Shown piece by piece: positions 439-52,550 of a stretch of 64,000 nucleotides of DNA. Under the pieces are notes generated by a model. That model saw only the letters and a program-made list of their open reading frames with translations, made no database searches and was not told where the DNA came from. The first letter of the stretch is position 1, and every line of letters begins with the position of its first letter. The stretch is from Spirochaetia bacterium. Its GTDB lineage: Bacteria > Spirochaetota > Spirochaetia > SZUA-6 > Bin103. The translations under genes were made by a program, and so were the position numbers. The stretch covers positions 320,001-384,000 of the forward strand of contig CBDBOV010000001.1 of assembly GCA_965208575.1 (NCBI GenBank). The letters are read 5' to 3'.

Positions 439-1143
439 CTACGCGCTCCGTTCCCGCAACTCGCCGTCGCGCATGTGCAGCAGCCGGTCGGTGGGCTCCA
501 CCAGCGAGCGGTCGTGGGTGACCATCACGAAGGTGCGCCCGTCGGTGTGCTGCTGCTCGCGCAGCAGGGCGTAGACGCACCGCGACGACCGCGCGTCCAG
601 GTTGCCGGTGATCTCGTCGCCGAGCACCACCTCCGGTTCCGCCACCAGGGCGCGGGCGAGGGCGACCCGCTGTCGCTGCCCCACGGACACGGCGTTGACC
701 CGCCGGGTGAGCAGATCCCCGATCTCCAGGCGGTCGGCGATGCGCCCGACGCGGCGCCGCCGCTCGCGCCGCGGGATGCGCGCCAGCAGCAGGGGAAACT
801 CGATGTTGCGGTAGCAGCTCATCAGCGGCACCAGCTCGAAGCCCTGCAGGACCACCGCCAGCCCGCGCCGGCGCAGGCGGGTGCGCTCGGCGTCGGTGTA
901 GCCGCGCAACTCCCGTCCGCGATAGCGGATGCGGCCCTCGTCGACGGTATCGAGGCCGCTGAGCACGTTGAGCAGGGTGCTCTTGCCGCTGCCGGAGGGC
1001 CCGAGCACGACCGCGAAGTCGCCGCGCCGCACGGTGAGGTCGACGCCGCGCAGCGCGGCTACCGCGCCGGTCTTGCTGGGGTAGCGCCTGGTCGCGCTCC
1101 GCGCCTCCAGCAGCGGTGGCCGCGCATGGGTGCGCCCGTTCAC
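439..1143 (-). CDS. ABC transporter ATP-binding protein (LolD/MacB-like)
   Basis: Walker A GPSGSGKS, signature VSVGQRQRVALARA, Walker B-like GDEITGNLD, VTHD. Confidence 0.93.
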   Translation of the reverse strand: MNGRTHARPPLLEARSATRRYPSKTGAVAALRGVDLTVRRGDFAVVLGPSGSGKSTLLNVLSGLDTVDEGRIRYRGRELRGYTDAERTRLRRRGLAVVLQGFELVPLMSCYRNIEFPLLLARIPRRERRRRVGRIADRLEIGDLLTRRVNAVSVGQRQRVALARALVAEPEVVLGDEITGNLDARSSRCVYALLREQQHTDGRTFVMVTHDRSLVEPTDRLLHMRDGELRERSA

Positions 1144-2042
1144 TGCAGCCGCTCCAGGTACAGCGCCGGGTCGTCGCCGGCGGCCAGGGCGCGGGCGGTC
1201 GCCACGGCCGGCGGGAAGCCGGGGGCGAACTCCAGCACCTGTGCGATCACCGCCGCCGCCTGCCCCGGTTCGCCGAGCTGGTGGTGGGTGACGCCGAGCC
1301 AGACGCCGGCGACCGCCCGTAGCGCCGGCGTCTCGCCGCCGAACGCTTTGCGGAAGTGCTTGAGCGCCTGCTTGCGGTCGCCGCCGAACGCCTTGGGGGC
1401 GTTGGCGAAGGTGAAGGCGAGGTTGAGGTGAGCCATCTGGTGGTCGGGATCGAGGTGCAGCGCGGTGGCGGTGGCCTGCCTGGCGGACCGGGCGAGCAGC
1501 ATCGCGCTGGCCGGGTTGGCGGCGATCTTCTGGCCCAGGATGGCGCCGTGCAGCGCGTGCCCGTCGGCGAAACCGACGCTCTGTTCCGCGAAGTGCTCGA
1601 TCTGCTCCAGCGCGCGGTCCAGGTAGCCGGCGCGTTCGTCGCCGCCGGTGCCGGCCAGCCGATGGTAGGCGTCGTACTCGATGCGGGCGCGCAGGTAGTG
1701 GTAGGCCGCCGGATCGCCGCGCAGCTCGTCGCTCCTCTCCCGCCAGCGCCGCATGTCGGCCGTGACCCGCGCCGGGTCGGGGGAGGCAGCGGTCGCCTGC
1801 CGGGCGAACCCCTCCGCCTGCACGCGCTCGTATTCGGCGAGCATCTGCGCCGCGGGTGGCGAGGGAGTGTAGTCGTGCAGTTCACGTGCGCCACCCGCGA
1901 AGCCGGCGGCCGTGCAGGTCAACAGCAGGATCAAAGTCGGGGCGGGCACTGCGGGTCGCGCGGGACGAAGAGCGTCGACCCATCGAGGTCGTCCGTCGGC
2001 CGCCACGGTCTGGTCGGAGTGGTACTGTTTCATCGTTTTCAT
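1140..2042 (-). CDS. TPR-like membrane-anchored/exported protein
   Basis: Hydrophobic N-terminal segment, helical TPR-like repeats (ALHLDPDHQMAHLNLA), overlaps ATPase start. Confidence 0.65.
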   Translation of the reverse strand: MKTMKQYHSDQTVAADGRPRWVDALRPARPAVPAPTLILLLTCTAAGFAGGARELHDYTPSPPAAQMLAEYERVQAEGFARQATAASPDPARVTADMRRWRERSDELRGDPAAYHYLRARIEYDAYHRLAGTGGDERAGYLDRALEQIEHFAEQSVGFADGHALHGAILGQKIAANPASAMLLARSARQATATALHLDPDHQMAHLNLAFTFANAPKAFGGDRKQALKHFRKAFGGETPALRAVAGVWLGVTHHQLGEPGQAAAVIAQVLEFAPGFPPAVATARALAAGDDPALYLERLQ

Positions 2043-2094
2043 CGTTCGTCTCCAATCTGCTAGACTTGCACTCCACGCCGCACACGAGCCGGTG

Positions 2095-2424
2095 TCACCG
2101 CGCCCGTTCGATGAGGCGGGTCAGGTTCTCGATGTGCTGCGCGAGGTGCTGCTGTCCGCCGGCGGTGAGCTGGTACCAGGTGACCGGGCGCCGTTCGCGG
2201 TAGGTCTTGTCGACCGCCAGGTAGCCGGCGTCCTCCAGCTTGCGCAGGTGGGTGCCCAGGCTGCCGTCCTTCTCCTCCAGCACTTCCTTCAGCCGGCGGA
2301 ACGACATCGCGTCGTACTTGGACAGCAGCACGCAGATCGCCAGCCGGACGCGATGCTGAAGGAGCCCGTTCAGCGCCGCCAGCTCGTCCAGGTCGGGAAC
2401 GTCGGGATCAACAGGCATCGTCAC
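2095..2424 (-). CDS. Winged-helix transcriptional regulator (MarR/HTH_34-like)
   Basis: HRVRLAICVLL...DGSLGTHLRKLEDAGYL...RRPVTWYQLT. Confidence 0.9.
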   Translation of the reverse strand: MTMPVDPDVPDLDELAALNGLLQHRVRLAICVLLSKYDAMSFRRLKEVLEEKDGSLGTHLRKLEDAGYLAVDKTYRERRPVTWYQLTAGGQQHLAQHIENLTRLIERAR

Positions 2425-2531
2425 TCAGCACCGCGCCAGGCGGTCTCGGGGCGCCTGCGGGCCTTGGTGGCGGGCGTTGCACCCGGAGCGCCGTTCGAAT
2501 GCAGCCGGTGTTCCGCCACGGGCCGCTATGG

Positions 2532-3101
2532 CTAACGGGCGGCATCGCGTGTGCGCGCTCCGAGGACCGCCTGCCAGACGAGCGCCCCCGCCACGAGGAC
2601 GCCGGCCAGCGTCCACTGGTACCCCGGTATGAACAGGGTCACCAGGTAACACACGCCGACTACCGCGCCCATCGCCAACATGCGGCGGTCCAGGTACAGG
2701 CCCGCATGAAAGTAGGACACGGCCAGCAGCAGCACCACGAGCGAACCGTACGCGGACCATGGCAGGTGTCCGGCTGCGACCAGGGCGGCGCCGAGCGCCC
2801 CGGCTGCCATGAATGCCAGCCAGTGCAATCCCCAGCGTGTGCCGGTCCGCGCGCCTCCCTGACCGGCATGGCGGCCGGCGCGATAGCCAAGCCATGCGGA
2901 GATACCGAATCCGGCGGGGCCCGCCACCGCCCAGAACCCTCCTACCCAGCGCCCGTCGGGTACGAAGTCCGCCAGCGCGAAGCCGCACAGCGAAATAACC
3001 GCCCACACCACGTATATCGACGGACTCGTCGCGGCTCCGGCCCGCTCGGCCGCGGCGCGCACGTACGCGATGTCTTCCTTGAGGTTGCCGGTCGTCGTCA
3101 C
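2532..3101 (-). CDS. Multi-pass membrane protein
   Basis: About six hydrophobic helices; N-terminal LKEDIAYVR typical of partners of this regulator family; GTG start chosen by me. Confidence 0.75.
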   Translation of the reverse strand: MTTTGNLKEDIAYVRAAAERAGAATSPSIYVVWAVISLCGFALADFVPDGRWVGGFWAVAGPAGFGISAWLGYRAGRHAGQGGARTGTRWGLHWLAFMAAGALGAALVAAGHLPWSAYGSLVVLLLAVSYFHAGLYLDRRMLAMGAVVGVCYLVTLFIPGYQWTLAGVLVAGALVWQAVLGARTRDAAR

Positions 3102-3149
3102 CTGTTTGCCCCCTGACTCTCGATCCGAGATAACTCTCGAATACCGTAT

Positions 3150-3186
3150 ACTCTGAAATATAGAGTGCATGGGGATGGGTTGTCAA
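3150..3186 (-). promoter_or_regulatory. Sigma70 promoter with overlapping palindromic operator
   Basis: Minus strand TTGACA (3186-3181)-N18-TATATT (3162-3157); inverted repeat ACTCT-N7-AGAGT at 3150-3166 covers the -10. Confidence 0.65.
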
Positions 3187-5836: not shown

Positions 5837-8080
5837 CTACGAGCCGTTGGACGCCTTGTGGGTGAGGATGCCTGCCAGTACGCGGTCCGGGGACATCGGC
5901 ACCTGGCGCAGGCGCACGCCGGTGGCGTCGGCGATGGCGTTGGCCACCGTCGCCAGCGGCGCCACGATGGCGTTCTCGCCCACGCCGCGCACGCCGTACG
6001 GGTGCTTGGGGTTGGGCACCTCCACCACCACGGTGTCGATCATCGGCAGGTCGAGGGCCACCGGCATGCGGTAGTCCAGGAAGCCGGCGTTCTCCATCAC
6101 CCCCTGCTCGTTGTAGAAGTAGCCTTCGTTGAGCGCCCAGCCGATGCCCTGGGCGGCGCCGCCCTGGAACTGGCCTTCCACGTAGCTCTTGTGCAGCGCG
6201 CGGCCGGCGTCCTGGCACACGGTGTAGCGCACCACGTCCACCTTGCCGGTGTCCTGGTCCACCTCCACGTCGCAGATGTGGGTGCCGAACGCCGGCGCCG
6301 CGAAGCGCGCGTTGATCGCCGCCTCGGCGCCGAGCGGACCGCCGGTCTGCGACGAGCTCCCGGCCAGGTCGCGCAGCGACAGCGGCTCCTCGGAGCCATT
6401 GCTGCCGCCGTTGCAGTGGGCGGCGCCGTCCTGCCAGGTGACCCGCTCCTTGTCCACCTCCCACACTTGGGCGGCGCGATCGCGCAGCAGGTCGATCAGT
6501 CTCTTGGCGGCTTCGTGGATCGCCATGCTGCTGGCGTAGGCGGTGCTGCTGCCCTCCGAGATGCCGTTCATGCCGACCGTGTCGGAGTCGCCGATGGAGG
6601 GGTTGATCTCGTCCACCGGGATGCCGAGTTCCTCGGCCAGGACCATGGCCTGGGCGGCGCGCGAGCCGCCGATGTCGGGGCGCCCGGTGATCAGCGACAC
6701 GCGCCCGTCGGGCAGCACCGAGATGTTGGCGGTGGCGTCGCCGCCGATGTTCATCCAGAACCCGCTGGCGACGCCGCGGCCCTGGTTCGGGCCGAGCGGT
6801 GCGCTGTAGTGCGGATGCGCCTTGGCGGCCTCGAGCGTCTCGACCATGCCGATTTGCGGGTAGACGGGGCCGTAGGCGGCCTTGGTGCCCTCCTTGGCGG
6901 CGTTCTTGAGGCGGAACTCGATCTTGTCCATGCCGATTTGCTCGCAGATCTCGTCGATGATGCTCTCGGTGGCGTGCGCGGCGTTGGGCGCCAGCGGGGC
7001 GCGGTAGGGGCGCATGAACGGCTTGTTGACCAGCACGTTGTAGCCCTTGATGTGGTAGTTCGCGACCTCGTAGGGGGCGGTCAGGCACATCATGCCCAGT
7101 CCCATCAGCGGCCCCGGGTAGCTGCCCGACTCGTACCACAGGTCGGCGTCCACGGCGGTGATGCGGCCGTCCCTGGTGGCGCCCATCTTGAGGCGGATGT
7201 GGCTGCCGGGGGCGGGGCCGCTGGAGGTGAACACCTCCTCGCGCGTCATCACCATCTTCACCGGGCGGCCGGTCTTCTCCGCCATCAGGATTGCCACCGG
7301 CTCCAGGAACACGGTGGTTTTGCCGCCGAAGCCGCCGCCGATCTCGGCGGGAATGGTCTTGATGCGCGACGGCGCGATGCCGAGCTGGCCGGCGGTCAGG
7401 TCGCGGATCGCGAAGTGGCCCTGGCTGGACACCCACAGCAGCACGTTGCCGTCCTCGCCCCAGCGCGCGACGCAGGCGTGCGGTTCGATGTAGCCCTGGT
7501 GGATGGTGGCGCTGTCGAACTCGTGCTCGATGATTACGTCGGCGGCGGCGAAACCCGCCTCCACGTCGCCGGCGTCGAACACGTTGGTGGTGGAGATGTT
7601 GGACGGCGGCGCCGCCTCGTCGCCGTCGGTGCGCAACTCGGGGTCGATGATCACGTTGCCCTGCGCCGCCTCCCACACGTCGGTCACGCACGGCAGCACC
7701 TCGTAGTCGACCTCGATCAGGCCGAGCGCCTGGTCGGCGATGGTGGGCGTGGCGGCCGCCACCGCGGCGACCGGCTGGCCCTGGTAGCGCACGTGGCCGC
7801 GGCACATCACCACGTTGGCGCTCACCTCGCTCGGCGTCTCGGACGGAAAGTCGTCCCCGGTCACCACCGCGAACACGCCGGCGAGCCCCTCCGCGGCGCT
7901 GGTGTCGATGGAGCGGATGCGCGCGTGCGCGTGCGGGCTGCGCAGCACCTTGCCGTGCAGCATGCCGGGCAGGTGGAAGTCGGCGCCGTAGTTGGCGCGC
8001 CCGGTCACCTTGTCCACGCCGTCGTGACGCACGGGCCGCGTGCCCAGCACCTTGTATTTCGCGGTTTTCGTATCGCTCAT
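5837..8080 (-). CDS. Xanthine dehydrogenase-family molybdopterin-binding large subunit
   Basis: DKVTGRANY, LRSPHAHARI, IGGGFGGK, EGQFQGG, GVRGVGE; true start MSDTK at 8080. Confidence 0.93.
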   Translation of the reverse strand: MSDTKTAKYKVLGTRPVRHDGVDKVTGRANYGADFHLPGMLHGKVLRSPHAHARIRSIDTSAAEGLAGVFAVVTGDDFPSETPSEVSANVVMCRGHVRYQGQPVAAVAAATPTIADQALGLIEVDYEVLPCVTDVWEAAQGNVIIDPELRTDGDEAAPPSNISTTNVFDAGDVEAGFAAADVIIEHEFDSATIHQGYIEPHACVARWGEDGNVLLWVSSQGHFAIRDLTAGQLGIAPSRIKTIPAEIGGGFGGKTTVFLEPVAILMAEKTGRPVKMVMTREEVFTSSGPAPGSHIRLKMGATRDGRITAVDADLWYESGSYPGPLMGLGMMCLTAPYEVANYHIKGYNVLVNKPFMRPYRAPLAPNAAHATESIIDEICEQIGMDKIEFRLKNAAKEGTKAAYGPVYPQIGMVETLEAAKAHPHYSAPLGPNQGRGVASGFWMNIGGDATANISVLPDGRVSLITGRPDIGGSRAAQAMVLAEELGIPVDEINPSIGDSDTVGMNGISEGSSTAYASSMAIHEAAKRLIDLLRDRAAQVWEVDKERVTWQDGAAHCNGGSNGSEEPLSLRDLAGSSSQTGGPLGAEAAINARFAAPAFGTHICDVEVDQDTGKVDVVRYTVCQDAGRALHKSYVEGQFQGGAAQGIGWALNEGYFYNEQGVMENAGFLDYRMPVALDLPMIDTVVVEVPNPKHPYGVRGVGENAIVAPLATVANAIADATGVRLRQVPMSPDRVLAGILTHKASNGS

Positions 8081-8362
8081 GTGTTTCCTCCGAAGACGTC
8101 CGAAGACGGTTGCCGATAGTGGCTTGCTTGCCGGCAGGGTAGACGAAACCGGGACTGTTCGACAACCGCTGCCGTCCGCACCCGCCTGGTCCGTTGCGGG
8201 GATCGCGTTTCCGCAACGCCGGCGATGCGGCCGGCGCGGGGGCAGTATGGCAGGCTGTCGGCTCCAGGAGCGCCTTCCTCGACTTCGACCGTGTCGGAGT
8301 TGCGGAACGACGGAACAGGGAGAGTGGCCGTTCCTGCTTGCTCGGTCTATACTGGCCGGTAC

Positions 8363-9382
8363 ATGGAGCCGGCTACCCCCCACAGCGGTCATTCTGCGCT
8401 TGACCCGCAATCCAGCGCTCCGGGAGCGGAGGCTGCCCCGCCGGGCGGGGTGCTGGCGAGGCCGGCCTTGAGCGTGGCGCGTGCCGCCACGGTCCGGGCG
8501 GCAGGGGTAGCCGCTCCGCCGCCGCCGCTGAACGTCGACATCGAATCTCTGGTAACCGAGGATGATACGCCGGTGGACAACATGCCCTCCGAGAAACAGC
8601 AGCGCCTGCTCACCGAGCCGCTGTACAGTTCGTGGGCCGGTCCGGGGGGCGGGCGCGCGTTTGTGGCGGCTGCCAACGTCGGCGTGTTTCCGGAGCCGCG
8701 CAACCCGGCGATCGTGCCGGACGTGTTCCTGAGCCTGGACGTGCAGGTGCACGAGAACTTCTGGGAGAAGAGGCACCGCTCCTACTTCGTGTGGGAGTTC
8801 GGCAAGCCGCCGGACCTGGTGGTGGAGATCGTGTCGAACCAGAAAGGCAACGAGGTTGGCAGCAAGCGGCTCAGGTACGCACGCATGGGTGTGGCTTACT
8901 ACGTGATCCACGATCCGTTTCACCGCGTGATGCGGGACGACCTGCGCGTGTACCGGTTGCGCGGCGGGCGCTACCAACGCCAGCAGTCGCCGCGGTTCCC
9001 GGAGCTGCGGCTGGGCATGCGCCTGTGGGAGGGCGAGTTCGAGGGCGTGTGGTGGAACTCGTGGCTGCGCTGGACGGACGAGCACGACGTGTTGATACCG
9101 ATGGGCAAGGAGCGCGCCGAGCACGCGGAGCACCTGGTGGTGGAGGAAAGCCGCCGTGCCGAGCAGGAAAGCCGGCGCGCTGAGGAGGAAAGCCGCCGTG
9201 CCGAGCAGGAAAGCCGGCGCGCTGAGCAGGAAAGCCGCCGTGCCGAGCAGGAAAGCCGGCGCGCTGAGGAGGAACACCGGCGCGCTGAGGAGGAACACCG
9301 GCGCGCCGAGGAGGAACACCGGCGCGCCGAACGCCTGGCGGCCTTGCTGCGCCGGTCGGGCATCGACCCCGAGCAGGCGTGA
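8363..9382 (+). CDS. Uma2-family (PD-(D/E)XK) endonuclease with C-terminal coiled-coil repeat tail
   Basis: PVDN..SEKQQRLL, VPDVFLSL, KPPDLVVEIVS, YYVIHDP; start uncertain. Confidence 0.88.
   Translation: MEPATPHSGHSALDPQSSAPGAEAAPPGGVLARPALSVARAATVRAAGVAAPPPPLNVDIESLVTEDDTPVDNMPSEKQQRLLTEPLYSSWAGPGGGRAFVAAANVGVFPEPRNPAIVPDVFLSLDVQVHENFWEKRHRSYFVWEFGKPPDLVVEIVSNQKGNEVGSKRLRYARMGVAYYVIHDPFHRVMRDDLRVYRLRGGRYQRQQSPRFPELRLGMRLWEGEFEGVWWNSWLRWTDEHDVLIPMGKERAEHAEHLVVEESRRAEQESRRAEEESRRAEQESRRAEQESRRAEQESRRAEEEHRRAEEEHRRAEEEHRRAERLAALLRRSGIDPEQA
9143..9331 (+). repeat. 21-bp tandem repeat x9 encoding E(Q/E)E(S/H)RRA heptads
   Basis: Directly visible GAGCAGGAAAGCCGGCGCGCT-like units. Confidence 0.95.
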
Positions 9383-42787: not shown

Positions 42788-43268
42788 CGACGCGCGCTTT
42801 CAGCAGACGGGTCCGAACGCCGGAAACGGCAGAATTCGCATGGCCGGGATCGACGACAGACAGCTTGCAGGAACGCACGACGGACGGCCAACTCCGCACG
42901 CGGCCACGGCGTGGAGGCGGCGCTACCGCGCCGGCTCGGGCGGCGGAGCTGGTCCGTAGCCGTGGCACATGCGGTGGTGCGCCAGGCACGCAAGAACCAA
43001 GTTCTCCGGCTCCGGGCCGCCCCCCTCGGCAACCGGCAGCAGGTGGTGGATCTGTAGCAGGTGGGACGAATTGCAGCGGCGACCGGTGAGCGGGTCCCGA
43101 TAGCGGCAGCGCCCCCCGTCGCGTAGCCAGACGTGACGCCGGACAGCCGCCGGAATGGAGCGCCGCGGCGGCGGCCGGCGCGCGCCGAGCGGAACATCGC
43201 GGGTGCACCGCGGCGATGCTCCCCCCGGCGAGCCGCCCGCACCACGCGCCGGCGGCACGCCGCTGGCC

Positions 43269-43480
43269 AACTTCGGCGCCGCAGCCGCGGCCGACCGGAT
43301 CCGCGTCGCACCAGCGCCATCGGCGGAGTCGCCGCTGCGCAACTTCTGCGCCGCAGCCGCGGCCGGCCGGATCGGCGTCGCACCAGCGCCGTCGGCGGAG
43401 CCGCCGCTGCGCAACTTCTGCGCCGCAGTCGTGGCCGGCCGGATCGGCGTCGCACCAGCGCCGTCGGCGGGGCCGCCGCC
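43269..43480 (-). repeat. 72-bp tandem repeat x3 inside HNH ORF
   Basis: AACTTC anchors at 43269, 43341, 43413; encodes QKLRSGGSADGAGATPIRPAAAAA. Confidence 0.9.
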
Positions 43481-44569
43481 GGCGCTCTGACCCGCCGGCG
43501 CCGCAGCAACGGCGGGCGCGGCCGAAGCAGCGCCACCTGCGCGGGTGCCAACTGCCCGTGCACCGCCCGCCGGGGCGACGGGCGCAACGCCGCGCACCCC
43601 GCCAGCGTTGCGGGTCGTCGCGGCCCGCGCCTGCGCCCCGGCGGCCGCGGCCGCCGCCACGACCGAGGCTGTGCGGGTCCGCTCCCGCCGCGACGATGCC
43701 GCCGTGCCGCCCGTACGCCCCCGCCTGCCACCGCCGCCCCGCGGGTCGTGCCGCGCCACCGCCTCGCGCACCAGGAGCGCCACCAGATCCCCCCACGACA
43801 TGCGCGGGTCGACGTGCGACCGCAGGTCCTTCAGTTGGCGCAGTCCCTGCTCGCACTCCTGGTCGATGCTCACCTTCAACGTGTAGCGGTCCGGCGCCAC
43901 CGCGCGCAGCGTGTCGCGCGGCGGTACCACCTGGGGAGCGGCACTCGCCAGCAGGCCGGCGACTTGGCGCGTGGTCATGCCGGCGGCCTGCTCGATCAGT
44001 TCGCGCTGGCGCCGCGGGTGCAGCAGCGCGGCGGCCGACACCGGCCCGGCCGACCGCTCCGGGCCGGAACACGGTTCCGGGTTGGAACACGGTTCCGGGT
44101 TCCGATCACCCCGCGACGGCGCCGGTGCGAGCGCAGCGGTGCGCCGCGGCTCCGATGGCGCCGCGACCGGCAACGGTACCGGCTCGGCGCCACCCGCCGG
44201 CGGCAGCAGCGGCGCGGCCGGGCCCTGGTCCGAGGCGGCCACGGCGGGATCGGGAGCGCGCACGGGTGCCGGACAGTGCCAGGCGGCTCCGCTCGGCTCC
44301 CGCCGCGCCGGCAGCGCATCGGCATGCCGGGCGCCGAGGTGCTGCGCAGCCGCGTGGCTCGCCACCGGCACTACCGGCGTGGTCGCCGCCTCATTACCCG
44401 TGAGACCGGGCCGCGGAACACACCCCGGCGCCACACGTGGCGCGTGCAGGGTGGCGGCCGTCGAAGCCGGTGCAGCGCCCGAGGTGGCGGCACTCGAGTC
44501 CAATCGGCCCACCGGCTGCGCACCCGCCGCTGCCGGGCGGGCACCGACTGCCGCCGAGTCGTCCGCCTC

Positions 44570-44852
44570 GTGGCCTCCGGCGTCACCGAGCGACCGCGCC
44601 GCCGGCTCGTCCGGCGGTCGGCTGCAGCCGTCGCTCACGGTGTGCCGGTCTTCGCGGCCCCCGGCGGCACGGGACGACCGCGCCGACGAGCCGTCCGATG
44701 ATGGTCCGCAACGGTCGCTCACCGTATGCCGGTCCTCGCGGCCTCCGGCGTCACCGAGCGATCGCGCTACCGGCTCGTCCGGCGGTCGGCTGCAGCCGTC
44801 GTTCCCGCCATACCGGTCCTCGCGGCCCCCGGCGGCACCGAACGACCGCGCC
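44570..44852 (-). repeat. 84-bp tandem repeat x~3.4 inside HNH ORF
   Basis: CGGTC(C/T)TCGCGGCC anchors at 44646, 44730, 44814; encodes ARSLGDAGGREDRHTVSDGCSRPPDEPx. Confidence 0.88.
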
Positions 44853-45247
44853 TCCTGGTCGACGGCGGCCACGCCGGGCGGCGCCGATGCCGTCACCGCC
44901 GCGGCACCGGCCATCCCCGCTCCCGACGCTTCGGCATCCTGGTCACCCGCTCCGCTCAGCGCAGCAGGCAGCCCATGCAGACCTTCGCAGCGCTCCTGAT
45001 CGACGCGCGCGCTCGCTCCCCGGCACTGGCGCTCGGCCGCCCCAAACGCGGTCTCCAACTGCGCCGCCGACGTCACACTCAGTTCGCCGCTGTGCAGCAT
45101 GGCCCGCACCCAGCCATGCCGCCGGCACAACCTCATGGTCTGAATACGCCGTTGCGCGGCCGCGTCGGTGAACCGCAACTCCCGCACCGCGTAGTCGAAC
45201 AGGCTCGAGAACCCGCGCCGCAGCGCCAGCCCGCGCCGGTCGATCTC

Positions 45248-45514
45248 GCAGACGGTGTCAGCGACATCGCCGCGTTGCGCAAATTGTTGGATTTCGGCGC
45301 GCCGATCCGAGGTATTCGTGACCTGCACGCCAAGGTTTACCTGTTTGGTACTCGGCGGGCAATCGTGACATCGGCGAATCTCACCGAGGCAGGACTGTCC
45401 CGCAATCCAGAATTCGGGATGATTACCGACGAAAGAGCGGCCGTTCGAGCATGCCGAAGCTATTTCGATGATTTGTGGCAACGCGGCGGTGGCGCACCCG
45501 GCGCACCCAAGTAG
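45248..45514 (+). pseudogene. Fragment of PLD-family nuclease domain
   Basis: GVSDIAALRKLL...LHAKVYLF...IVTSANLT..GL..N.EFG; no start. Confidence 0.75.
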
Positions 45515-45516
45515 AC

Positions 45517-45545
45517 TTGACCCTCAATCAGTAACCCCGTATTCT
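45517..45545 (+). promoter_or_regulatory. Near-consensus sigma70 promoter
   Basis: TTGACC (45517-22)-N17-TATTCT (45540-45). Confidence 0.65.
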
Positions 45546-45549
45546 CATG

Positions 45550-45686
45550 GTTCAGGGTTCCTGATACGTAGACCCTGACTTCAACGGTGGCTCTGTTCGT
45601 TGCGGTCTTAGCAATCTGATAGTTTCTTACTCTTAATCTATTTGTAATATCTGAGAGATCAGAGTTGCTGCAACCGCAGTGGCGAA
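45550..45686 (+). ncRNA. Candidate structured RNA (two hairpins)
   Basis: Stem TCAGGGT/ACCCTGA then long stem TGCGGTCTTAGCAATCTGAT/ATCAGAGTTGCTGCAACCGCA; AT-rich; directly after promoter. Confidence 0.35.
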
Positions 45687-45848
45687 GTGGGCTATAGTTC
45701 CATTGGGTATATTGGGCCTCGGCTTCACGTAGTGATTTATACGGTCCGTGACGGTGCGAGGCGTATCATCAGCCTGCGCAAGGCGAACAAGCGGGAGGAA
45801 GCGAACTATGCCACCGCTCAAGCCGGACCATATCAGTCCGACGGATGA
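45681..45848 (+). pseudogene. BrnT toxin, N-terminally truncated
   Basis: GE...IGYIGPRLHVVIYTVRDGARRIISLRKANKRE; in-frame TAA at 45645 upstream, so the N-terminal part is absent. Confidence 0.8.
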
Positions 45849-46131
45849 CGAGAACGCTGCAATCGACGCCGGCATCGCAGCCGATCCTGACACGTTTGAG
45901 TTGGACGCGGTGTGGTTCAGGCATGCGCGTCTCGCCTTTGAAGTCGATCCTGATCTAGCGACGCACCCCCGCGTTGCGAGTGACAGTCCGAGGTCTGCGC
46001 GAAGGGAGCGCGTCACGATCATCCTGGATGCCGACATTGCACAGCATTTCCGATCCACCGGGAGCGACTGGCAGGCTCGGCTAAACGAGACACTGCGTCG
46101 TGCCGTGTTCGGCACCGGCAGTCGAGCATAA
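45808..46131 (+). CDS. BrnA antitoxin
   Basis: AAIDAGIAADPD, RERVTIILDADIAQHFRSTGSDWQARLNETLR. Confidence 0.85.
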   Translation: MPPLKPDHISPTDDENAAIDAGIAADPDTFELDAVWFRHARLAFEVDPDLATHPRVASDSPRSARRERVTIILDADIAQHFRSTGSDWQARLNETLRRAVFGTGSRA

Positions 46132-46248
46132 CTCTGCAAGGGATCGCTGGATAGTCCGCCGGGAGCGCCGGAGCGCCGCGGTTCGGATGGCATCCTCCCC
46201 AGATGGCGGCGCCGCCGGGGCGTCAACCACGAGCGCTGAGCGGATCAC
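46130..46248 (-). pseudogene. Possible VapC/PIN toxin remnant
   Basis: GTGA-coupled to the antitoxin, begins IRSALVVDAPA then loses PIN similarity. Confidence 0.4.
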
Positions 46249-46475
46249 CCCAGTTGCTCGTCGCGTCCCGCTCGCTCCTGTTCCAGCACTTGTGCTGCCG
46301 GGACGCCGAGCTTCGTAGTCGAACGTCCCGCGAACCGTCCCTGCCATTCCTGGCGCGCGAGTTCGCGTTCCACCGCGTCCAGGACCACCTCGCTCATTGT
46401 TCGCCTGCTCGCACGCGCGTGGCGGCGCAGGCGTTCGTGCAGTTCCGGGGGCACATTCTTGACCAGGAGGTCCAT
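46245..46475 (-). CDS. FitA/Arc-like ribbon-helix-helix antitoxin
   Basis: LLVKNVPPELHERLRRHARASRRTMSEVV. Confidence 0.8.
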   Translation of the reverse strand: MDLLVKNVPPELHERLRRHARASRRTMSEVVLDAVERELARQEWQGRFAGRSTTKLGVPAAQVLEQERAGRDEQLG

Positions 46476-46559
46476 GGGATCCTTATAGCATGACGGGAGG
46501 GTGGCAGGGACAAGTGCCGGCCCACCGAGTCTGCCGTAAGCTTCGGGGTAGCATAGCGA

Positions 46560-49154: not shown

Positions 49155-49832
49155 CTACCGGCGCGCGATGCGGCACGGCCGCCACCGCTTCGACCAGTGT
49201 TCGTCCGACTGCACGTGCCCAACGCGCACGCTCTTGCAGACGCTGCGCGGGAACTCCGCCGCCGGGAACCCTGCGGCAAGGCGCAGCACGACTCCCTCGC
49301 GCTCACCGCCGAGCGCTGACGGCTGACCGTGCGCTTCGCTGACGAAGTCGCGCACCTGCCGCACCGAGTCGAACGTCCCCTCAAACAGCACCGGCACGAC
49401 CGGGATGGCGTGCGTCGTGGCATACTCCGTCATCTCGTGGAACGAGCCGAACGACCCACCCTTGAGCCGCAGTGCGAACGCGTAGAACGTCCTGTCCTCC
49501 GGCACCGGGTCATACTCGATGCTGTGCACGCCGTAGATATCCTCGCCGTAGAGAAACACGTCAGGCTCGGTGACCTTCCATGCGTGGTGCTTCCTGACCA
49601 TCCCCAGCCACTTCGCCGCCGCAGGAGCCGAGACACTGCGCGCATACACCTCGCCCCGATGCAACAGCGTGTTGCTCCCATCCAGCTTCTCGGTAACCAC
49701 GACCGCCGGCCCCACGAACGGCTCCGGATCAGCGACTACATCGCCATGCCGGGCTTGCGTTGGCGAATAGAGCAAGTACGGCATCCGAGGATACTTCCAC
49801 CCCCGAGAGGCTACCAGGAGAGTTGCGCTCAC
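49155..49832 (-). CDS. ATP-dependent RNA ligase family protein
   Basis: KYPR, motif I TEKLDGSN, LYGED, FYAFAL, motif IV REGVVLR, VCKSVR; GTG overlaps upstream TAG. Confidence 0.88.
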   Translation of the reverse strand: MSATLLVASRGWKYPRMPYLLYSPTQARHGDVVADPEPFVGPAVVVTEKLDGSNTLLHRGEVYARSVSAPAAAKWLGMVRKHHAWKVTEPDVFLYGEDIYGVHSIEYDPVPEDRTFYAFALRLKGGSFGSFHEMTEYATTHAIPVVPVLFEGTFDSVRQVRDFVSEAHGQPSALGGEREGVVLRLAAGFPAAEFPRSVCKSVRVGHVQSDEHWSKRWRPCRIARR

Positions 49833-50317
49833 TATTCGGTTGTCGCCTTTGATGCATGCTGCGGGCAAAGCTGCCGGACCCTCACTCCCAAGTCGCGCAC
49901 GAGCGTTTCCTGCTCACTCCAGTCGCTGTCCGTGGCGTTGAGAATCTCGGCCTTGCCCACCACTGCGACCGCCAGGAACTTGCGATCGGATGGATCGAAC
50001 TCGTTCTCCGGTAGTTCCTCGAAGCTGCGGTTTTGATCGTTGCAGGGAGTGATCGCAACCCGACGCACTCTCGTCCCACCGTACATGTGATCATGAACGT
50101 GCTTGAAGAATGCATCTCCTACTCCTGGCGCTCCTGCGAAACTCAACCGACTCCGGTACTCATCGAAAATGAGACTGTTGTCGTCAAGCAGTATTGCCGC
50201 GTTCCCGCAGACGGCTCTCAGTTTTTCGACGCACGCCAGTTGACAAACTAGATCTGCGTGAGTGTCCTTTCCGTTGGCGGCGATAGCAACGTTGGTATCG
50301 ACAACGATATTGGTCAT
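49832..50317 (-). CDS. PIN-domain-like ribonuclease
   Basis: IVVDTNV, IFDEY, DPSDRKFLAVA, NATDSDW: four acidic positions present. Confidence 0.75.
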   Translation of the reverse strand: MTNIVVDTNVAIAANGKDTHADLVCQLACVEKLRAVCGNAAILLDDNSLIFDEYRSRLSFAGAPGVGDAFFKHVHDHMYGGTRVRRVAITPCNDQNRSFEELPENEFDPSDRKFLAVAVVGKAEILNATDSDWSEQETLVRDLGVRVRQLCPQHASKATTE

Positions 50318-51678
50318 TTCGTCGCGTCTATCCGCCTCTTGAGCGATGCCTCGGCAATCGCCGCGATCTCCCCCATATCGTCTCCGAAGAAGCGGTCGGG
50401 CCAGTTCTCTATTTCGCCAAACTCATTGAGGGAAAGGTCACTGAGTCTCGCTGCGCCAGCATCGTTGCCTACGAAGTAGAGTTTGATATCGGACGAAGCC
50501 GCTTCGCCTTCAGCGGCACGCCGTTGGAAGCGGCGAAGGAGATGCTCGCTGTGGCTCTCCACGACAATTTGCACGTTCCGTCGTCTGGCCACCGAGAGCA
50601 TGACATCGGCCAATCCGCTCTGCACCGAGGGATGCAGATGGATCTCCGGCTGCTCCATGAGCACGATCGAGCCCTCAGGTACATAGTACAACAGCACAAG
50701 CACGGGCAAGACTTGGGACACTCCGAAGCCGACATCAGTCAGCATCGTTTCCGGACTGGACTTATTCACTCGCACTCGGGCGTGATAGTAACTTGATCCT
50801 TGCGCGATCTCCTGGATCTCGAATGATTCGATCAGGCCGAGTTCGCGCAGCCAATGAGCAATCATCTCCTGGAACGTCATGAGGCGCATTCGCCATTGAA
50901 GGTTCCTCAACTCATTGTTAGCTGTGGCGGCCAGAATGGCGTCAATCGTGCGTTCTCCAGCACGCCCAACATCCTGGGGACCGACGCCGGACCATCGATA
51001 CTCGCGTTGAGGATGCTCGCGAAGAGGGCCAAGATAGTAGATACGGTCCATCAACCCCTCATATTCGGTTTCGAAGTCGCTGAGAAAACCTGTATCCTGA
51101 AATAGTGTTCGCACTCGGTCGGGGAAAAGATGCGTCTTGACCGGGCCTGGTAGCGCCCAACCACGGCCTCGGTTACGAGTAAAATATACCGGATGGTCGC
51201 CATCGGATCGGAGTACGTACTCGGTGCCATCCTCTGACCTAGGCTCGATCGCAAAGTCAGTGTTAGCGAATCGATAACGGAGACGTCGGGCAGTCAGAGT
51301 CGATCGCTTCAGGCCTACAGAACAGTTCAATTGAAGGTTGCGTCCGTGCATGAGAACTGCTGTCCGTTGCCCCGATGGATCGCTGACCTTCAGTGAGTCA
51401 GGAAGTCGCCACCTCAAAGTCCATTCGATATCGACTCTCTCGTCTCCGTTGTGGACAACATCCTGGAATCGTCCGAGGTTGACCAGCTCTGTGGGACCGC
51501 CAAAATCCAGTACCAAGCTCCGGTCGGTCGCGTTTTTTGTCTGCTTGAGCAAGAGCAGGAACTGAAGCAGGCTGCTCTTTCCGGAGCTGTTCGTACCGAA
51601 GACTCCGGTGATCCGGCCCAGCGGTATTCTCAGTCTACGCCATGCTTTGAAGTTGGTGAGGTGGAGTTCCTTCAACAT
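50314..51678 (-). CDS. ABC-type ATPase AAA_21 with DUF3696-like C-terminus
   Basis: NFKAW, GTNSSGKS, DVGFGVSQVLP, MEQPEIHLHP, ESHSEH, EFGEIENWPDRFFG. Confidence 0.88.
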   Translation of the reverse strand: MLKELHLTNFKAWRRLRIPLGRITGVFGTNSSGKSSLLQFLLLLKQTKNATDRSLVLDFGGPTELVNLGRFQDVVHNGDERVDIEWTLRWRLPDSLKVSDPSGQRTAVLMHGRNLQLNCSVGLKRSTLTARRLRYRFANTDFAIEPRSEDGTEYVLRSDGDHPVYFTRNRGRGWALPGPVKTHLFPDRVRTLFQDTGFLSDFETEYEGLMDRIYYLGPLREHPQREYRWSGVGPQDVGRAGERTIDAILAATANNELRNLQWRMRLMTFQEMIAHWLRELGLIESFEIQEIAQGSSYYHARVRVNKSSPETMLTDVGFGVSQVLPVLVLLYYVPEGSIVLMEQPEIHLHPSVQSGLADVMLSVARRRNVQIVVESHSEHLLRRFQRRAAEGEAASSDIKLYFVGNDAGAARLSDLSLNEFGEIENWPDRFFGDDMGEIAAIAEASLKRRIDATK

Positions 51679-51686
51679 CCGTCGTT

Positions 51687-51714
51687 CTCCTATGTATAGG
51701 CGGCGAGTATATCA
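51687..51714 (-). promoter_or_regulatory. Extended -10 promoter and SD for the ATPase operon
   Basis: TGATATACT (51714-51706) and AGGAG (51691-51687). Confidence 0.55.
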
Positions 51715-51718
51715 CTTC

Positions 51719-52445
51719 TCATCGGATTAGATTCTGACTCCCAGGGAAGGGGTTGGTGCCCCAGATGTCGAGGTCGCGGACCAGGGTGCGGCCGGGAAGG
51801 CGGGCGAGGTGGACGATGGTGGCGGCGATGTCGGCGGCATGCAGGTAGATGCCGGGGGCCGTGCGGCGGGGTGGTGTCCTCGCCGGTGTCGGTCTGGCTC
51901 GGGTTGATCACCATGACCCGGATGTTGGAGCGGCGCACGTCGTACAGCAGCGCTTGCGCGAAGCCGTGCAGGCCGAACTTGCTGGCCGAGTAGGCGGCGG
52001 TGCCGGGGTCGGCCTTCTTGCCGTTCATTGAACTTATGATGAAGATGTCGCCGCGCTCCTTGCGCAGCATGCCCGGCAGGAACTTGCGCGTGGTGTAGAA
52101 AACGCCGGTCAGGTTGACGTCGATCACCCGCTGCCACGCCTCCAGCGACATGCTCTGCACCGGGCCGCCTCCGCCGCCGCCAGCGTTGTTCACGAGGATG
52201 TCGGGCGCGCTCCAGGTCTCCTCGACGGTGCGGGCGAGCGCTTCGATCGCGCGGGGGTCCGCCTGGTCGCACACCACGGGCATGCATTCGCCGTCGATGG
52301 ACGCAGCCGCCGGCTGCAGGCGCGCGGGCGAGCGCCCCGTCATCACCACGCGTGCCCCCGCCGCCGCGAACGCGCGCGCGATGTGCAGGCCGATCCCCCG
52401 GCTGGCGCCGGTCACGACGGCGACCTTGTCAGTCAGATCATACAT
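51719..52445 (-). pseudogene. Short-chain dehydrogenase with +1 frameshift near 51856
   Basis: TGASRGIG, NNAG, YSASK; C-terminus GIYLHAADIAATIVHLARLPGR lies in another frame after a G5 run. Confidence 0.8.
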
Positions 52446-52550
52446 GGTCCCGCACCATACTCGTTTCGCGTAGGCACGGTCACTTCGCGGCTTCTTGCCG
52501 TCCCGCACTGGGCCCCGCAGTGGCGGACGACCCGAGCACTTGGACTTCGG

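Follow-up and report, generated by a model that had tools for sequence, protein, structure and literature searches.

Does an RNA ligase gene that overlaps a nuclease gene belong to the same defence system, and if it does, what could a repair enzyme be doing there? The question is raised by three minus-strand genes in a 64,000-nucleotide stretch of a Spirochaetia bacterium genome (GenBank assembly GCA_965208575.1, contig CBDBOV010000001.1, positions 320,001 to 384,000 of the forward strand), which is called the window below and supplies the coordinates used. A preliminary description, made from the letters alone, had proposed that the trio of ATPase, PIN nuclease and RNA ligase is a cut-and-repair anti-phage system without a name, and had allowed that the ligase might be a bystander. 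We find that the ATPase and PIN genes almost certainly constitute the named defence system HEC-03, and that the ligase gene is inherited with them as the third member of one conserved module. The three genes are:

50314..51678, minus strand: HEC-03 ATPase gene, 454 residues, predicted ABC-type ATPase with a DUF3696 tail (NsnB-like), by PADLOC and Pfam matches and the Walker A motif
49832..50317, minus strand: HEC-03 PIN gene, 161 residues, predicted VapC-like PIN nuclease, by a PADLOC model and invariant acidic residues
49155..49832, minus strand: RNA ligase gene, 225 residues from a GTG start, predicted minimal ATP-dependent ligase with the nucleotidyltransferase domain only

The ATPase and PIN genes correspond to HEC-03

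HEC-03 (Hma-embedded candidate 3) was described by Payne et al. (bioRxiv 10.1101/2024.01.29.577857) as a pair made up of an ABC ATPase and a VapC-like PIN protein; the pair reduces plaquing in E. coli, and both genes are required. According to the same preprint the pair is toxic on induction with isopropyl β-D-1-thiogalactopyranoside (IPTG), and the protection against phages rests on one representative in E. coli. The window ATPase matches the PADLOC model PDLC04148 with an E value of 4.2e-210, residues 1-452 aligning with positions 1-455 of 458, and the PIN protein matches PDLC04147 (8e-67, model positions 2-157 of 159). Because of these two matches the pair is almost certainly HEC-03. The genes are adjacent on the same strand, and the predicted catalytic acids of the PIN protein (D7, E53, D111 and D132) are invariant among 32 homologs.

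The ATPase carries the Walker A motif GTNSSGKS and matches the Pfam families AAA_15 (7.9e-25), AAA_21 (1.1e-20) and DUF3696 (8.9e-07). It also matches the PADLOC model for NsnB (2.2e-61), which agrees with the earlier statement that AAA_21 with DUF3696 is the NsnB architecture. The PIN protein is weakly recognized by Pfam (PIN_3, 0.0021, below the cut-off). A sequence search of the PDB gave no meaningful match for the PIN protein and only P-loop-level matches for the ATPase, and a scan of viral contigs with the PIN profile found no relative.

The window pair thus has the adjacent, same-strand genes and the full-length model matches of HEC-03. It differs in that HEC-03 is published and modelled as two genes, whereas a ligase gene stands third here, as it does in 69 of 80 relatives, and in that the window copy is not embedded in an Hma system. 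The word ligase has 0 occurrences in the main text of the preprint (10.1101/2024.01.29.577857). The lettering of the two genes also varies: PADLOC calls the PIN protein A and the ATPase B, and the preprint reverses the letters. The PADLOC comparison that the preliminary description had recommended therefore recovers a known pair at full length and no model for the ligase, and the statement that no named system was known has to be withdrawn for the pair, which is named, modelled and shown to defend.

The ligase gene accompanies the pair across phyla

The PIN profile was scanned against one genome per species, which yielded 223 relatives, and the best 80 loci were examined. In 69 of the 80, the gene immediately downstream of the PIN gene, in the same orientation, encodes a ligase. 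By their record titles the ligase-bearing loci belong to Latescibacterota, Binatia, Thermodesulfobacteriota, Spirochaetia and Acidobacteriota, and also to Gemmatimonadota, Rhodothermales, Alphaproteobacteria and Gammaproteobacteria. In 29 of the 69 loci the start of the ligase gene and the stop of the PIN gene overlap by 4 nucleotides, in 10 more they are within 15 nucleotides of each other, and the other 30 are ambiguous. When the open reading frames (ORFs) of the 80 loci were clustered, the ATPase (75 loci), the PIN protein (78) and the ligase (69) were conserved, together with shadow frames only. The flanking genes vary from locus to locus, and the cassette is therefore mobile.

The guanine-cytosine (GC) content of the ligase gene is above that of the PIN gene in all 69 loci and above that of the ATPase gene in 68 of them, by about 6 points on average. 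Because this offset is general across the loci, the higher GC content of the window ligase does not mark it as a bystander, and the caveat that had been raised on this ground falls away.

Pairwise distances were compared for the 59 loci in which all three ORFs are full-length, locus L080 being left out. The distances of ATPase and ligase correlate with a Mantel r of 0.774 (0 of 999 permutations as high), and those of ATPase and PIN protein with r = 0.672. An ATPase tree was built from 74 loci and the window, leaving out 6 of the 80 loci in which the ATPase ORF is cut or shorter than 400 residues. Three changes of the ligase label are needed on this tree. Nine of the 11 ligase-less loci group together, and L033 and L074 are isolated losses within ligase-bearing clades; no ligase remnants were found in the 11. 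The three genes thus form one conserved module in which the ligase is inherited with the other two, and a functional tie between the ligase and the ATPase-PIN pair is very probable.

The genes that follow two of the ligase-less pairs were inspected. In L017 the next gene (6855-8066) encodes an HEC-01A ATPase (1.6e-138), and in L074 it encodes a large protein (6636-8873) that is RAMP-like by eye only.

In a single case, L080 of Gemmatimonadota (6001-6996, plus strand), the PIN protein and the ligase are fused in frame into a protein of 331 residues. The PIN part lacks its last ~15 residues and the ligase part its first ~45, and the PIN part matches the HEC-03 model at 5e-56. The fusion may have arisen by deletion. 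It hints that the ligase might join the ATPase and the PIN protein in a complex.

When plasmid-encoded proteins were searched with the PIN sequence, 12 records at 31-34% identity were obtained, and six regions were examined. Five of the six contain, in this order, a DUF3696/AAA ATPase, a hypothetical (PIN) protein and a protein annotated as an RNA ligase family protein; they come from Azotobacter chroococcum, Aeromonas veronii, Aeromonas salmonicida, Tistrella mobilis and Rhodococcus aetherivorans. In the two of these five trios that were scanned, the ATPase and PIN proteins match HEC-03 and the ligases match PF09414. For the Azotobacter plasmid the values are 2.7e-132 (ATPase), 9e-28 (PIN) and 9e-31 (ligase), and its ligase is 26% identical to that of the window. 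Conjugative and mobilizable plasmid copies adjoin Hok/Gef and AbiEii genes. The linkage of the ligase to ATPase-PIN homologs elsewhere, on which the preliminary description had staked its proposal, is therefore borne out by 69 of 80 loci and five of six plasmid regions.

An Acinetobacter soli plasmid (L138, 2639-5296) has a HEC-03-like ATPase, annotated as split, and a PIN gene, followed by an HNH gene (Pfam HNH_2, 5.7e-12). This cassette adjoins an N6 DNA methylase gene.

The third gene encodes a minimal RNA ligase

The ORF of the third gene as listed extends over 49155-49868 on the minus strand, and an in-frame GTG at 49832 gives a protein of 225 residues. This shorter form is likely, because many homologs are exactly 225 residues long at 100% query coverage; the closest include 225-residue proteins at 87% identity. 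The protein matches the Pfam family RNA_ligase (PF09414) with 69.6 bits (cut-off 27) and an E value of 4.8e-19. In an alignment of 70 rows, residues E48, K49 (motif I), D51, G52, E97, E179, K200 and R203, which belong to motifs I, III, IV and V, are invariant, and motif I is present in all 69 ligases of the HEC-03 loci. By these residues the third gene is a PF09414 RNA ligase that looks catalytically intact.

A structural model of the ligase was made with AlphaFold from the 70-row alignment and has a predicted local distance difference test (pLDDT) value of 93.5; it replaced a model from a shallow 37-row alignment, which gave 47.5. A Foldseek search with the model returned 57 PDB matches at E <= 0.001 with RNA ligases at the top, where the sequence search of the PDB had given no meaningful match. 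The best folds are those of archaeal Rnl3, T4 Rnl2, the Naegleria ligase, REL1 and Trl1, with template modelling (TM) scores of 0.5-0.59 and identities of 14-19%. For the third gene, the structural check that had been proposed thus ends among ATP-dependent RNA ligases.

The window ligase has the nucleotidyltransferase fold and motifs of T4 Rnl2, archaeal Rnl3 and Naegleria Rnl5 (PDB 5d1o, 2vug, 2hvq, 1s68 and 5cot), but at 225 residues it is without their extra N- or C-terminal domains. The C-terminal domain of Rnl2 is needed for nick sealing. Of the Rnl2 chains, which have 317-319 residues, the window ligase matches the adenylyltransferase part alone, and so it does not show the C-terminal domain of the T4 Rnl2 family.

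A library-wide search with the ligase gave 1317 clusters at E <= 0.001. In all four long representatives that were scanned, the ligase domain is fused to kinase, phosphatase or 2H end-healing domains of the "Swiss army knife" type, and one of three upstream proteins scanned, beside a phage-like relative of the ligase, matches RlaP (PF10127). Because of these fusions and the RlaP neighbour, the ligase family is assigned to RNA repair. Relatives at 31-39% identity occur in 25 phage records, mostly of jumbo phages.

Residues C199, H206, H212 and C220 (region 199-220) are invariant in 37 close homologs, and only H206 is so in the wider family. The four are a possible metal site of this ligase subfamily.

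Ligases outside the trio

The association was also examined from the side of the ligase. A ligase profile search led to 54 metagenome loci, which have upstream of the ligase an ATPase and a PIN gene in 17 cases, a PIN gene only in 6, an ATPase gene only in 1, and neither in 30. Some of the six PIN-only loci are cut by contig ends and some contain PIN remnants. Most ligases of the 30 loci with neither gene are only 42-55% identical to the window ligase, and among them those at 42-48% identity are in phage-like contexts with tail-fibre-like and Hsp20-like ORFs. An intact ligase stands beside PIN remnants, without an ATPase, in the metagenome loci L089, L091, L092 and L101. On metagenome contig L106 (35-1227) an ATPase C-terminus is followed by a ligase within 72 nucleotides, with no PIN match between them.

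The site of the window cassette was followed in 20 relatives by a DNA search and subsequent protein and nucleotide checks. In the same-genus genome G007 the dehydrogenase and PhyH dioxygenase genes that flank the window cassette abut, with no cassette between them. They also abut in G008, with 45 nucleotides of the Shine-Dalgarno region and ATPase 5' end retained. In G003, ~50 nucleotides of the ATPase start region are joined in frame to the start of a full-length ligase (80% amino acid identity). The deletion scars of two same-genus genomes still contain the Shine-Dalgarno region upstream of the ATPase. In G001 and G006 the dehydrogenase gene is followed directly by a full-length ligase gene (80% and 87%), and ATPase and PIN genes are absent. 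Because of these scars, the trio is regarded as ancestral at the site and as later cut down in different ways; the deletions left the ligase twice or more. Full trios are present at other sites in G005 and G012 by nucleotide matches. On contig 3 of G005, a genome of the same genus (~244500-249200), the trio (73-75% nucleotide identity) is accompanied by short ligase-like and ATPase-like fragments ~2 kb away.

Gene layout and surroundings in the window

Direct reading shows that the TGA stop of the ATPase gene and the ATG start of the PIN gene overlap by 4 nucleotides (ATGA at 50317-50314), and that base 49832 is common to the TAG stop of the PIN gene and the GTG start of the ligase gene (TAGTG at 49834-49830, a 1-nucleotide overlap). 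The overlapping stop and start codons reported at first sight are thereby confirmed. The catalytic motifs reported for the three proteins are likewise all present: the Walker A motif, the PIN acidic set and the ligase nucleotidyltransferase motifs. Two upstream signals precede the ATPase gene:

51706..51714, minus strand: extended -10-like motif TGATATACT, 28 nucleotides upstream of the ATPase start, a motif match only
51687..51690, minus strand: Shine-Dalgarno-like GGAG, 8 nucleotides before the ATPase ATG (51678)

The reading frame of the upstream dehydrogenase stops at 51721-51719, 5 nucleotides before TGATATACT. A consensus promoter scan did not call a promoter at this motif, which is without a -35 match. 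The preliminary description had given the cassette its own extended -10 and Shine-Dalgarno sequence. Both motifs are there, but as the -35 is absent in the scan the "own promoter" is to be taken as a motif match only. Two terminator-like sites from the scan are no more than the shuffle expectation.

The ATPase and PIN genes have a GC content of 54-57%, the ligase gene of 62-69% and the genome of ~70%; the preliminary description had already noted that the ligase gene looks the more GC-rich. The trio is a low-GC cassette flanked by the dehydrogenase gene and the PhyH dioxygenase gene. The former, a short-chain dehydrogenase gene upstream of the cassette (51719-52508, minus strand), has a frameshift near 51860-51880: the ORF from 52508 departs from the family sequence after "...PPHGP", and the conserved C-terminus is in another frame that stops at 51721-51719. 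The frameshift could be an assembly error or the gene could be a pseudogene.

Further along the window, a low-GC patch at 44726-46500 (0.53-0.55 at 45250-46000) contains three small defence-type genes, which encode the C-terminal part of a DrmC-like protein of the phospholipase D type (PADLOC DrmC, 5.3e-33, residues 160-256 only), a BrnA antitoxin (45748-46131) and a FitA-like ribbon-helix-helix antitoxin (46245-46475). An ORF of 852 residues (42923-45481, minus strand) lies in a stretch of 76-82% GC. Segments rich in alanine and glycine recur in it, and an HNH motif is present at its C-terminus (Pfam HNH, 1.5e-4); PADLOC gave no match.

Comparison with known systems

The idea of a ligase that neutralises the nuclease of such an operon had already been published. 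A table in Matelska et al. 2017 (PMC5499597) lists some PIN_3 members whose operons also encode an ATPase, an HNH nuclease and an "ATP-grasp ligase", and cites Burroughs and Aravind 2016 for a proposed conflict system in which the RNA ligase neutralises nucleases, a prediction without experiment. The term ATP-grasp is used by that group for Rnl-type ligases (PMC7824862). As far as the citation in PMC5499597 permits the comparison, the predicted system has the same PIN_3-type nuclease, ATPase and ligase, and its HNH variant also occurs here. The window trio is likely to be this PIN/ATPase/ligase/HNH system predicted in 2016.

Menshen (NsnABC) shares the NsnB-like ABC ATPase with a DUF3696 tail, and in models of that system the DUF3696 tails clamp a PIN-like domain (PMC12065111). 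It differs from the trio in that the PIN domain of NsnC is inactive and fused to a BECR nuclease, whereas the window PIN protein is free-standing, has 161 residues and keeps an intact D-E-D-D set, and in that no ligase belongs to it (the word has 0 occurrences in PMC12065111). A Pfam scan found no DUF262/ParB gene for NsnA among 12 neighbouring ORFs, in agreement with the earlier statement that this Menshen gene is absent. The trio is also distinct from VapBC, since a 454-residue ATPase gene and no small VapB antitoxin gene lies upstream of the PIN gene; the preprint of HEC-03 (10.1101/2024.01.29.577857) likewise gives no relation to VapB.

A further comparison is with PrrC/RloC and the T4 enzymes Pnk and Rnl1. 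The repair enzymes there are phage-encoded and defeat the defence, whereas here the ligase is encoded by the cassette. PrrC is a metal-independent nuclease, after which end healing is needed. In that contest an ABC-type ATPase-regulated RNase cuts transfer RNA (tRNA) and a ligase reverses the cut (cf. PMC2610378).

Literature searches found no experimental study of this trio or of its ligase, and a search for DUF3696 together with RNA ligase returned nothing. What is already known is the core pair, which is named and tested (10.1101/2024.01.29.577857). To this the present analysis adds the GC offset as a general feature, the co-divergence of the genes, the deletion scars within the genus, the L080 fusion, and the HNH and PDC-M07 variants.

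A proposed role for the ligase

We propose, as the most likely reading, that the trio is a three-gene form of HEC-03 in which the ligase would reseal the cuts of the PIN nuclease, as an antidote or a recovery step; the chances of this proposal are about even. On the analogy of Menshen, PARIS and Gabija, and of other ABC ATPase-nuclease systems named in the HEC-03 preprint, the NsnB-like ATPase would hold the PIN nuclease through its DUF3696 tail and, on sensing a phage cue, would release or activate it. The PIN protein would then cut RNA, probably tRNA or ribosomal RNA (rRNA), and translation would stop, as the same analogy and the VapC-like similarity suggest. The cuts would have 3'-hydroxyl and 5'-phosphate ends that an ATP-dependent ligase could seal without end healing. 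By resealing such nicks, the co-translated ligase would offset the leaky activity of the PIN protein while the cell is uninfected, the antidote role, and could allow cells to recover after the trigger is gone.

Metal-dependent PIN nucleases are expected to leave 5'-phosphate and 3'-hydroxyl ends. Ligases of this class need a 5'-phosphate and a 3'-hydroxyl, and end healing is needed after metal-independent RNases (PMC7824862). If the PIN protein follows this chemistry its ends would be directly ligatable, which would explain why the cassette holds no kinase or phosphatase. The missing end-healing polynucleotide kinase, which the preliminary description had entered as a caveat, therefore carries little weight. 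An antidote or recovery role also fits because the two-gene HEC-03 is toxic on induction and because ATPase and PIN were lost while the ligase was kept; loss of the toxin before the antidote would give this pattern. That the ligase works in the direction of repair or as an antidote is, in our estimate, an evenly balanced matter.

Several observations weigh against this proposal. Some lineages can do without the ligase, since 11 of the 80 loci consist of ATPase and PIN genes without it, and the published HEC-03 is described as two genes (10.1101/2024.01.29.577857). An HNH endonuclease occupies the ligase slot on the Acinetobacter soli plasmid, in the one record examined of three such, so the third slot is not always held by a repair enzyme. 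Intact ligases persist alone in G001, G003 and G006, and the enzyme may be useful by itself. In L107 a 64%-identical ligase stands directly upstream of a different ATPase pair, PDC-M07 (663-3178, plus strand; PDC-M07A 2.8e-161, PDC-M07B 8.8e-52). In L108 the ligase is probably also beside PDC-M07, as the same ligase match and no HEC-03 genes were seen there. A comparison of PDC-M07B with the PIN profile by hhalign gave a probability of 1%, and PDC-M07B is not called a PIN protein.

Alternative explanations

The ligase could be a general RNA-repair gene, useful alone, for example against the RNases of phages, competitors or other resident systems, which travels with the cassette and does not act on PIN products. 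The orphan ligases at the cassette site of the three same-genus genomes, the four metagenome loci that keep a ligase beside PIN remnants, the ligase beside PDC-M07 and the 25 records of related ligases in phages and jumbo phages are all in its favour. However, a free-standing gene is not expected to stay with one nuclease family, and here 69 of 80 loci agree in the position and strand of the ligase gene and in its start-stop overlap, the divergence of the ligase tracks that of the ATPase as closely as that of the PIN protein does, and the trio persists at a PIN identity of 31-34% and a ligase identity of 26% (one pair compared). We consider this explanation unlikely.

It is doubtful, too, that the ligase is part of the attack. 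It would then misjoin PIN-cut RNA, for instance once nucleotides have been excised or by circularising or adenylylating it, into forms beyond phage repair, or the third gene would be a swappable second effector. The HNH nuclease in the same slot on the Acinetobacter plasmid would suit such a role. So would the L080 fusion, which mimics the layout of Menshen NsnC with its PIN-like N-terminus and variable C-terminal effector (PMC12065111), and multiple-cut strategies against phage ligase repair have been discussed (PMC3710099). On the other hand, the PIN protein retains the full D-E-D-D set, unlike a mere adaptor, the ligase family is tied to repair contexts, and a ligase that is kept after deletion of ATPase and PIN is probably harmless alone.

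The trio might instead be mainly an addiction module that stabilises mobile DNA, with the PIN protein as toxin, the ligase as antidote and little anti-phage role in this host. Copies on conjugative or mobilizable plasmids next to Hok/Gef and AbiEii genes, the mobility of the cassette with its varying flanks, and the toxicity of the pair on induction (10.1101/2024.01.29.577857) are consistent with this. But the two-gene core protected against phages in the same preprint, many copies are chromosomal and relatives readily lose the whole cassette, which leaves an addiction role distinctly improbable.

Finally, a two-gene cassette could have been inserted by chance beside the ligase gene, as the higher GC content of the ligase and the ligase-only sites in relatives might suggest. 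This is hardly credible and was rejected on the common order in 69 of 80 loci and five of six plasmid regions, the GC offset in 69 of 69, the co-divergence (r 0.774) and the scar of G003, in which the start of the ligase is fused to the 5' end of the ATPase gene and which shows that the trio came first.

Implications

For annotation, the current HEC-03 models lack a third gene, which 69 of the 80 closest loci and five of the six plasmid copies examined possess. As the two-gene core is proven, the two-gene and three-gene forms can be compared directly, and the genus series of trio, ligase only and empty site, together with the L080 fusion, is ready-made test material. A further question is what leads some lineages to replace the ligase with an HNH nuclease or to lose it.

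Many nuclease defences are thought to kill or arrest the cell, and one that carries its own repair enzyme raises the questions of how autoimmunity is controlled and whether the response can be reversed. With little confidence, we suggest that a nuclease response that would otherwise be lethal may be made reversible or programmable by the ligase. Two forms of this can be envisaged, which even taken together are improbable. There could be a constant cycle of cutting and resealing that is thrown off balance once a phage inhibits or outpaces the ligase, or the PIN protein and the ligase could excise and rejoin tRNA or rRNA into a form beyond phage repair. Either form, if true, would be a mode of defence as yet demonstrated in no system.

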